Shown here one piece after another: positions 11,389 through 49,410 of a stretch of 64,000 nt of DNA. The notes beneath the pieces were generated by a model. The model ran no database searches and was not told the origin of the DNA. It saw nothing but the letters and a program-made list of their open reading frames with translations. The stretch covers positions 98,146,001-98,210,000 of the forward strand of contig OX597820.1 of the NCBI GenBank assembly GCA_951406725.2, written 5' to 3'. The position numbers and the translations under genes were made by a program. The stretch is from Octopus vulgaris (Eukaryota). Position 1 is the stretch's first letter; each line of letters begins with the position of its first letter.

Positions 11389-11995
11389 ATGGCTTGTAGA
11401 TGTGATGGCTTGTAGATGTGATGGCTTGTAGATGTGATGGCTTGTAGATGTGATGGCTTGTAGATGTGATGGCTTGTAGATGTGATGGCTTGTAGATGTG
11501 ATGGCTTGTAGATGTGATGGCTTGTAGATGTGATGGCTTTTAGATGTGATGGCTTTTAGATGTGATGGCTTGTAGATGTGATGGCTTTTAGATGTGATGG
11601 CTTGTAGATGTGATGGCTTTTAGATGTGATGGCTTGTAGATGTGATGGCTTGTAGATGTGATGGCTTGTAGATGTGATGGCTTTTAGATGTGATGGCTTG
11701 TAGATGTGATGGCTTTTAGATGTGATGGCTTTTAGATGTGATGGCTTTTAGATGTGATGGCTTGTAGATGTGATGGCTTGTAGATGTGATGGCTTGTAGA
11801 TGTGATGGCTTGTAGATGTGATGGCTTGTAGATGTGATGGCTTGTAGATGTGATGGCTTTTAGATGTGATGGCTTTTAGACGTGATGGCTTTTAGATGTG
11901 ATGGCTTTTAGATGTGATGGCTTGTAGATGTGATGGCTTGTAGATGTGATGGCTTGTAGATGTGATGGCTTTTAGATGTGGTGGCGTGTAGATGT
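11389..11995. repeat. 16-bp minisatellite (ATGGCTT[G/T]TAGATGTG)n, about 37 copies
   Basis: Directly visible tandem array with no spacers. Confidence 0.97.
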
Positions 11996-26790: not shown

Positions 26791-26992
26791 TATTATTATT
26801 ATCATCATTATTATTATTATCATCATCATCATCATCATCATCGTCATCATTCAAAATATGTTGATTTGGTTCTGTGCTACTTCAAGTTTCGCAGGCCTCT
26901 AACGGGAGCTTCTGACATGTAACTCCTACTACACGAGGTGAGTGCCTCTTTCTTCTACTTGTCCACTCACTCGTGTATGTATGTGTATAAGT

Positions 26993-27360
26993 ATACTCTT
27001 TTACTCTTTTACTTGTTCCAGTCATTTGACTGCGGCCATGCTGGAGCACCGCGACCCCGGGACTTATTCTTTGTAAGCCCAGTACTTATTCTATCGGTCT
27101 CTTTTGCCGAACCGCTAAGTGACGGGGACGTAAACACACCAGCTAGGGGGACAAACACAGACACACAAACACACACATAAATATACATATATATACGACA
27201 GGTTTCTTTCAGTTCCCGTCTACCAAATCCACTCACAAGGCATTGGTCGGCCCGGGGCTATAGCAGAAGACACTTGCCCAAGATGCCACGCAGTGGGACT
27301 GAACCCGGAACCATGTGGTTGGTAAGCAAGCTACTTACCACACGGCCACTCCTGCGCCTG
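26993..27360 (-). mobile_element. Family A SINE (internally deleted)
   Basis: A/B-box head GGCGCAGGAGTGGCCGTGTGG...GGGTTCAGTCCC on minus; (GTAAAAGA)n tail. Confidence 0.9.
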
Positions 27361-27437
27361 TATATATATACATATATATATAAGTGAATTGAAGAAATGG
27401 AGTTGAACGAAGATTGAACAGAAATCGTTTTATTGCA

Positions 27438-27517
27438 TTCTACACGTGTTTCGAAAGCCACAATTTACCAAATTCCGATTGAATAAGGAGACCATATTGT
27501 GTCTTTCTCTTCAGGAA
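27438..27517 (-). ncRNA. Type I hammerhead ribozyme motif (mirror copy)
   Basis: Exact reverse complement of 27696-27775. Confidence 0.85.
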
Positions 27518-27695
27518 GAAATAGGAAATCCGTTGGAAAAAACAAAAACAGAACAGAGGCGGAGCAAAACAAATCGAACGAGGCTCCTAAGAGCCCATGG
27601 CCAAACACTTGGCCATGGGCTCTTAGGAGCCTCGTTCGATTTGTTTTGCTCCGCCTCTGTTCTGTTTTTGTTTTTTCCAACGGATTTCCTATTTC

Positions 27696-27775
27696 TTCCT
27701 GAAGAGAAAGACACAATATGGTCTCCTTATTCAATCGGAATTTGGTAAATTGTGGCTTTCGAAACACGTGTAGAA
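27696..27775 (+). ncRNA. Type I hammerhead ribozyme motif
   Basis: Helix I TTC/GAA; CTGAAGA at 27699; helix II GAAAG-A-CACAAT / ATTGTG-G-CTTTC; GAAA at 27761; palindromic helix III ACACGTGT; GUA cleavage triplet at 27770-27772; AATAAA just downstream. Confidence 0.85.
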
Positions 27776-28033
27776 TGCAATAAAACGATTTCTGTTCAAT
27801 CTTCGTTCAACTCCATTTCTTCAATTCACTAATAATATTAAAATTCAATTATCCGCACCAACGCATGGTTGCAACACCATATGGTTGTACCTCCAACCGT
27901 GCTGTCTTCTGCTGTGATTTTTGCTACCAAGGTATCGGTTAAACTTTTGATTAATCTGCAACAAGATTATTCATCTTTCTATTTCACATAATACATATAT
28001 ATATATATATATACAGATGTCGTGCAAACAGCA

Positions 28034-30585: not shown

Positions 30586-31833
30586 CACGAGGGGTGTATG
30601 AAATGTTTTGAGCTAACCTAGAAACGGGGCTGCTAGATAGCTGAAATAAATTTTGCTGGTAAGTACAGTCTTTTCGGGATAATCTTGCTCATTTTCATGA
30701 TTCTGATATTTTTGAATAAACAACTGTCGAGATTTCAAGGAAAATGGAGAAAGTAGAATATCGTGCTGTCATAAAGTACCTTCATTTGGAAGGCATGACT
30801 CCATCGGAAATCCATGAAGATATGGTGAGGATCATAACAGACAATACTCCTTCATATGCAAAGTCAAAAGGTGGGTAAATGAATTCGAGCGTGGCAGGGA
30901 GAGTGTGGAAGATGATCCCAGACCAGCGAGACCTCCAACTGCAACAACCGAGGAAAACATTGACCTTGCTCTTGGTATGATACTGCAAGATCGCCGAATA
31001 TCATGTCGTCAGATAGCCGAGAGACTGGGCATCTCAACTGAAAAAGCAGACAACATTGTGACAAAAAACTTGGGTTCTCAAAGTTTTCCGCAAGGTGGGT
31101 CTCTCGCCTTTTGATTCCTGAACAGAAACACACCAGGTGCACTTTGTCCACGAGCAATCCAGAACTGTTTGAAGCCGATGAATAGAATTTTCTTGCTCGT
31201 TTCATTACTATGGACGAAATTTGGGTTCATCACTACCAGCCTGAAACCAAAAAACAATCAAAGCAGTGGAAACACACGTCTTCTCCTACCTCAAAGAAGG
31301 TCAGTGTCATTCCTTCAGCTGACAAGGTCATGGCGTCTGTTTTTTGGGGGATTCTGAAGGAGTCTTGCTGATCAGTTACATTGAAAAAGGTCACACCGTG
31401 TATTATTCTCAGCTACTGAAACGCCTCCGAGAAGCAATCAAAGAAAAAAGCTGGGAATACTCACCGAAGGAGTCGTTTTTCATCACGACAATGCTCCAGC
31501 CCACACATCAGTGGTTGCCATGGGAACAATTCGTGATTGTGGATACGAACTTGTTCCCCATCCGCATTGCCAGATTTAGCCCCTCTGATTTTCATCTATT
31601 CCCCAAAATGAAACAAGCCCTAGCAGGTCGCCATTTTGCCATTGACAATGACATCATAGAGGCCGTAGAAAGTTTCTTAGAGTTTCAAACAAAAGAGTTC
31701 CCCGCCGGGATAATGGCGCTTCAGCACCGCTGGAGAAAGTACTCAGCCATCGAGAGGGACTATGTTGAAAAATAAATCATCAGAAGTCTTGTACTATGTT
31801 TTGTTTGAGGTTCAAGACTTTACATACACGCCT

Positions 31834-49222: not shown

Positions 49223-49410
49223 CACACACACATTGTTAGATAAATAAATAGAAAGATTCACAGCTATAGATATACACACATTCATACATATGTATTCATG
49301 TAAATGTAGATATACATTTACATGAATACATATGTATGAATGTGTGTATATGTATGTATATGTGTGTATGCACATATATGTATGCATATATATGTATATA
49401 TATATATATG

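Follow-up and report, generated by a model that had tools for sequence, protein, structure and literature searches.

We found in Octopus vulgaris a perfect palindrome. With a probability of about three in four we read it as an autonomous Penelope-like retrotransposon inserted in minimal form, as two pLTR ends lying head to head in a (TA)n tract, which would have been twin-primed on capped sense RNA, with run-off at the first base of that RNA. The palindrome is genuine. It is a short insertion of recent date from a common Penelope-like element, known in kind and belonging to a new family variant, and in this sense an ordinary Penelope product. No protein is encoded by the copy described here, which is likely a dead end. 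Its significance lies in the family, whose many siblings share both the outer ends and the centre of the structure.

The palindrome in the window

The window, that is the whole stretch of 64,000 nucleotides that was analysed, contains a single non-microsatellite hairpin of such kind, at 27383-27830. An inverted-repeat search returned exact arms of 222 bp at 27383-27604 and 27609-27830, 100% complementary and with no mismatch, around the loop ACAC, just as the first-pass annotation had described them. A second perfect inverted repeat (49270-49351) is AT-rich, has 39-bp arms and a 4-nt loop, and lies within a microsatellite region. We number positions so that 27609 is +1. The left arm (minus strand) is an inverted pLTR copy that ends on its outer side at the family's short site B (about +222), and it directly adjoins the (TA)n tract at 27368-27382. 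The right arm (plus strand), identified by its exact identity to the left one and by family matches, comprises the first 222 bp of a forward pLTR copy. The same repeat then continues for about 160 bp (27831-27990, plus strand) up to the family's long site A, where 30 of 30 loci compared end, and is followed by the right (TA)n tract at 27991-28013. The earlier description of a (TA)n tract beside the arms thus holds for the left side; on the right the tail, which had been overlooked, comes first. The left arm is thus of the short B type and the right arm of the A type, and the pair is indeed an inverted partial copy. A simple fold-back is not supported, since folding back of the other arm would not produce a tail on one arm only.

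The 15 letters of 27368-27382, a CA interruption included, recur at 27991-28005 and may represent a target-site duplication, an ambiguous one because it lies within (TA)n and the head of the element begins similarly. An AATAAA hexamer, recognised by its letters only, is present behind the hammerhead motif as annotated (27779-27784, plus strand); judged from the positions of sites B and A, template RNAs must extend 50-210 nt past it.

An assembly or library fold-back artefact could explain the perfect identity of the arms, and among the pieces listed from contigs of four DNA-type runs (Logan; short and repeat-broken) none spans the centre or the outer junctions. The mirror, however, halts exactly at site B and leaves out tail and flank, the same design recurs with small arm differences at > 100 loci, and a possible 15-bp target duplication frames the insertion, all of which makes an artefact highly improbable. 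The family is also present in Logan contigs of other samples, with loose ends into TA at 27831-27840, i.e. TA-joined B ends.

The insertion lies in a TA tract behind one probable SINE, and its left flank (26990-27360) consists of very high-copy short repeats (depth in millions) that are probably SINEs. Elsewhere the window holds a tandem array of about 38 copies of a 16-bp unit (11389-11995, 96% matches) and an ORF fragment at 30818-31111 (plus strand) that matches Pfam HTH_32 (E 1e-8) and is probably a transposase remnant. Apart from this HTH fragment, Pfam detected no host-gene domains among the 112 window ORFs of at least 70 aa, a search that small exons may escape.

The parent family and its protein

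Searches of the 2.8-Gb assembly (227 contigs) with the right-hand 380 bp gave 1,736 candidates, and all 40 of the 40 that were scored are 97-100% identical to it. One internal 27-mer has 2,278 exact matches, and the arms number more than 2,200. Two other copies are 100% identical over the 380 bp, which agrees with the recent insertion proposed by the annotation. Further copies run upstream into a long ORF; the unit measures about 3.7 kb in one of them (L077), and ORFs of 904 aa are open in L077 and L090. The right arm is therefore a family end that is linked elsewhere to an ORF with RT and GIY-YIG, and its suspected origin from a Penelope-like pLTR is borne out. A search for other copies and for an adjacent RT/GIY-YIG ORF, which the annotation had proposed, yielded the copies and intact ORFs elsewhere and no RT/EN ORF adjoining the palindrome in the window. 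The idea of a separate non-autonomous ribozyme element finds no support, as the unit is a truncation product of the autonomous 3.7-kb family.

The predicted structure of the 904-aa protein (pLDDT 78.9) finds its best match in telomerase RT (Z 16.5), and model residues 783-886 superimpose on the GIY-YIG catalytic domain of I-TevI (Z 10.3, rmsd 2.4, 89 of 92 aligned). Sequence searches of Pfam and PDB with the parent protein or its alignment gave no match; a single-sequence fold of the C-terminal 131 aa reached a pLDDT of 33 and was not used. Between the two open copies dN/dS is 0.29 over 35 changes, a value that hints that the family may replicate with its own protein. Residues 488-557 and 632-772 of P0003 form long low-complexity inserts, predicted to be disordered and rich in Ser, Asn and Gly, which recall the inserts rich in Asn that have been reported from Penelope ORFs of Adineta vaga. 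A second open, Hydra-like ORF of 727 aa (P0113; L088:4109-6289, minus strand) is 36% identical to the family, keeps most of the linker Cys motif discussed below and is a possible helper in trans.

In three loci (L077, L092, L096) the 3' end of the element is joined to the ORF head, forming pLTRs as partial tandems. Site A lies about 50 nt 5' of the ORF ATG in tandem copies, and in only one of the four tandem ORF heads compared (L092) does the pLTR reach the presumed RNA start, which speaks against our reading of that start. Two internal deletions (L107 and L090) were considered as introns and rejected: their ends are not GT-AG, and microhomology is present. At L090:4300-4330, sequence from upstream of the presumed start is fused to the ORF head at a short microhomology, and the stretch from +1 to site A is skipped.

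The Hydra clade comprises C-terminal EN+ Penelope-like elements, including Hydra-1_Obim (Craig et al. 2021, PMC8557442). Compared by eye with the clade described there, the octopus family likewise has a single ORF with RT and C-terminal GIY-YIG, DKT in place of DKG (SDKT at 121-124), no CCHH pair within the GIY-YIG core (one Cys stands between the two motifs), CxxC and CxH around the EN E and N (CNLC..E and CPH), a canonical hammerhead with a 4-bp palindromic stem III, and (TA)n targets. It departs from the clade in its unit length (about 3.7 kb in L077 against generally < 3 kb) and in two low-complexity inserts. The N-terminal RWK motif is matched in part: RW stands at the aligned place, and the third residue is L. 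Above all, the CxCX5C linker motif, present in 69 of 73 aligned proteins, is absent from 42 of 42 copies of the family examined, which have one Cys (39 copies), none (2) or two (1). We file the family as Hydra-like rather than typical because this linker is absent: it is a young, autonomous, Penelope-like family and a Hydra-like variant. Judged by eye against the Hydra reference proteins of the PMC8557442 supplement, hammerhead and protein both differ from Hydra-1_Obim and set the family apart. Recently active Penelope families have been reported in an octopus (PMC13282606).

Outer ends, inner ends and the shared centre

The family has two outer ends, each followed by (TA)n: site A at +380 and site B at +217 to +232, about 155 nt apart. 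A ends go into (TA)n in 138 of 142 cases and into the ORF head in 3. Among 114 distinct divergent pairs, 101 combine an A with a B end and 2 more do so without a clean TA tract; in 9 one arm ends elsewhere, and the remaining two are A+A-like and B+B-like. These loci were chosen by sequence searches and not at random, which inflates the share of short palindromes. Arms within one insertion diverge by 0.66% (38 pairs with at least 80 shared bases) versus 3.2% between insertions, and perfect arms are not rare (11 of the 38 pairs measured show no difference at all). Gene conversion could add to this identity. In many pairs the two arms differ greatly in length or are separated by 1-2 kb, and the inner ends of other copies are scattered over kilobases into the ORF.

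Head-to-head pairs with tails and hammerheads have been published before (PMC8557442), and the Penelope-like insertion unit is described as a pLTR with an adjacent inverted, 5'-truncated copy and a tail of 30-40 bp at one end (PMC8557442; PMC3846280). The octopus insertions resemble this unit in the head-to-head copies, the tail on one arm and the AT-rich target. They differ in the length of the tail (about 155-160 bp) and in their inner ends, which accumulate at a single base and show an extra G there.

This pile-up is seen genome-wide. Long copies carry the letters C-AGT ahead of +1, and the base before the start 26-mer is C in 333 cases, G in 41, A in 15 and T in 11. Among fetched loci the element continues upstream in 27 of 30 cases with C, in 2 of 26 with A or T and in none of 30 with G. 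About 65 of 400 arms thus stop at one base, compared with 8 of 2,599 at the one control position counted; 11 of the 41 G loci entered this figure as ends by extrapolation from the fetched ones. In an initial set of 40 long arms, selected in another way, 12 stop between -12 and +7 and 17 within the 308 bases that follow. In 12 of the 13 cases in which the end of the partner arm or of the TA tract is plain, the unexplained base is G; the sequence of the partner arm would also account for 11 of 30 G cases, and 7 lie in untemplated stretches. Arms that start with the G are of both types (15 B, 11 A and 4 others; n=30).

The centre of the window's palindrome is shared by 20 palindromes genome-wide, with loops of up to 12 nt. 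Seven loops of 4 nt occur at this centre, GAGT five times and GGGT and GTGT once each, the last being the window's own loop (27605-27608, read on the minus strand), which is one base off the combination of extra G and element start AGT at the five sibling loci. Since sibling palindromes differ in subfamily bases and in the arm that bears the G and the tail, they arose separately. In two of the seven loops the extra G is followed by a base other than A (G in one, T in the other), a share far in excess of the family's substitution level; speculatively, this could reflect misreading of a cap-adjacent base.

An identical 4-nt loop at five loci might also be expected of a distinct, retrozyme-like ribozyme element that moves as a palindromic unit, and animal retrozymes are reported as derivatives of Penelope-like elements (10.64898/2026.07.22.740005). 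The differences among these five loci, in subfamily bases as well as in the arm with G and tail, do not fit a mobile unit of this type, nor do inner ends that elsewhere range over kilobases into the ORF. Moreover, non-LTR retrozymes are, as their abstracts define them, arrays of head-to-tail monomers that are non-autonomous and lack a coding parent in cis; we found no such array here, and in other copies the head-to-head pair is contiguous with the ORF. We consider a retrozyme-like element very unlikely.

Reverse transcriptases can copy the RNA cap as an extra G. The hotspot, where CA+1GT presumably resembles an initiator, would then be a transcription start within the pLTR and the extra G a copied cap, both of which we infer from DNA alone. 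A start site and promoter within the pLTR are known for D. virilis Penelope (PMC2377424).

Twin priming could also hold with a centre set by RT stalling or by an uncapped RNA break, the G being an ordinary untemplated addition. Terminal addition by reverse transcriptases is common, and a stable, short, GC-rich hairpin is predicted 10-25 nt inside the hotspot. The stops, however, fall on a single base past this hairpin, at the CA+1GT that we take to be initiator-like, and ends at the predicted hammerhead cut show no excess of G (it precedes the end in 3 of 19 arms). A stall or break at the centre is therefore an improbable account, if the least far-fetched of those we set aside.

The published reading of head-to-head palindromic junctions is self-priming on an antisense template, where the inverted arm would arise by hairpin fold-back, as proposed for Adineta vaga Penelope; the same paper leaves a sense template open (PMC3846280). 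Tight loops of 3-9 nt, which do occur, and the GC-rich hairpin just inside the centre would suit this mechanism in the octopus family too. It fits poorly with the extra G at the sense-strand 5' end on both arm types, with the many pairs whose arms are very unequal or 1-2 kb apart, and with the finding that in 101 of 114 pairs the outer ends are fixed, unlike each other and continued by (TA)n. We regard it as unlikely, slightly more so than a stalled polymerase, and favour a sense template because the sense-strand G is found on both arm types.

The hammerhead motif and the copying of the RNA

A type I hammerhead descriptor matches two places in the 64 kb, both in the palindrome and one on each strand: 27690-27783 (plus) and its mirror 27430-27523 (minus; predicted cut between 27441 and 27440). 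The first-pass annotation was right about one motif per strand, but not about an 11-bp helix II, which in the predicted fold consists of 5 + 6 bp flanking an A.G mismatch. In the plus copy the core occupies 27699-27705 and 27761-27764, helix II 27706-27760 and helix III 27764-27771; H17 is A27772, after which the cut is predicted. The core elements CUGAnGA, GAAA and NUH and the three helices are all matched by the descriptor, with a weak helix I (3 bp plus a possible 4-bp distal stem in the predicted fold). Helix III, palindromic as annotated, reads ACACGUGU, and its dimer is predicted at -10.3 kcal/mol. Rfam returned no hammerhead family among five matches at E<=10, solely hairpin-driven miRNA matches below the cut-off.

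An older sister family of about 78% identity (L046:7460-7907 and L092:349-670) shares the B and A ends and has a hammerhead that covaries; its copy in L046 makes up a short palindrome of its own, centred just before helix I. The sister family keeps the core and has both partners replaced in 4 of 19 pairs, three of them in helix II and one in helix III, and the hammerhead alignment of five rows from two lineages has 93.7% of its cells paired. This modest evidence from sequence comparison suggests that the structure is kept by compensatory change. Further descriptor matches with palindromic helix III lie in flanks of other loci (L022-:255, L091-:6683, L102+:442), in sequence unrelated to the family.

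An active monomer fold was considered and discarded: its predicted share is 2.5e-6, helix II is displaced in a longer 5' context, and the predicted competing fold pairs the hammerhead with an upstream U-rich tract, in predictions that leave out tertiary contacts and protein help. The motif, which lies in the 5' UTR, is predicted to depend on dimer formation or on assistance from protein. Cervera and de la Pena 2014 (PMC4209133) described hammerheads of Penelope-like elements with palindromic helix III and low in vitro activity, and hammerhead pairs on opposite strands 100-700 bp apart. The octopus motif resembles these in its type I core, long helix II, short helix I and dimer-favouring palindromic helix III; it differs in the longer helix II domain (55 nt) and the predicted competing fold with the upstream U-rich tract.

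Arms that end at the predicted cut number 19 of 2,335, or 2.7 times the control (8 of 2,599 at one control position), and arms that end one base before it about 28 of 2,312 (25 of 30 fetched, scaled to 34), or 4.0 times the control. A strong 5'-end hotspot at the cut was dropped as a candidate, the excess over one control being just 2.7- and 4.0-fold. These counts mean that about 98% of arms read through the cut site, so that the hammerhead is likely uncut in most templates that integrate. Such read-through agrees with the low in vitro activity in PMC4209133 and with Poseidon PAc from Anolis carolinensis, where ribozyme mutants were still inserted and cleavage needed protein (Frangieh et al. 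2024, PMC11167929).

In the same study, the Penelope-like protein cuts and extends both strands, and RT starts at two internal sites in vitro. The octopus family would be alike in that two internal RT starts define the tail and both target strands are cut and extended; in Poseidon PAc the hammerhead is dispensable for insertion in vitro. The octopus family differs in the placement of its start sites, 5' of the ATG and with about 155 nt between them. The main text of PMC11167929 does not treat inverted pairs or cap signatures. Our literature search, which covered few subscription papers, found no cap-G or twin-priming account of Penelope-like inversions, and within the same scope no report of a start-site/extra-G signature, of a strict pairing of A with B ends or of an element that targets (TA)n while lacking the linker motif.

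In the mechanism we prefer, transcription would start within the pLTR, and the RNP would nick a (TA)n tract on both strands. On capped sense RNA, one of the resulting 3' ends would prime at site A and its counterpart at site B, and the two cDNAs would extend toward the RNA 5' end. Where priming occurs in the 5' pLTR, run-off would follow after 230-380 nt, and the cDNA ends would be joined head to head, presumably by end-joining with little or no microhomology. This twin-priming model accounts for a tail confined to one arm, for the A+B pairing, for the near-identity of the arms within an insertion, and for both the common centre and the extra G. In L097/L098 and L135, units that run from the start to B or from the start to A form short direct tandems; every unit begins at the presumed start, as would fit re-engagement of the template after run-off.

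Taken as a genomic record of integration, the family would tell a broader story, towards which we lean with some reserve: a dimeric RNP would prime both (TA)n strands on sense RNA that is capped and uncut, using two fixed sites, and would copy the cap, so that the centres would mark where transcription starts and exclude antisense self-priming; and (TA)n would be targeted without the linker Cys. The young siblings bear on the choice between sense and antisense templates that was raised for head-to-head Penelope-like pairs (PMC3846280) and, as most arms read through, on whether the pLTR hammerhead cuts the integrating RNA. They also bear on the need for the linker Cys motif, proposed to direct (TA)n targeting, as a family without the motif still targets (TA)n. 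For the octopus, a genome that carries many near-perfect long hairpins of one sequence may possess a source of double-stranded RNA. Insertions of this family are likely a record of how Penelope-like elements are copied.
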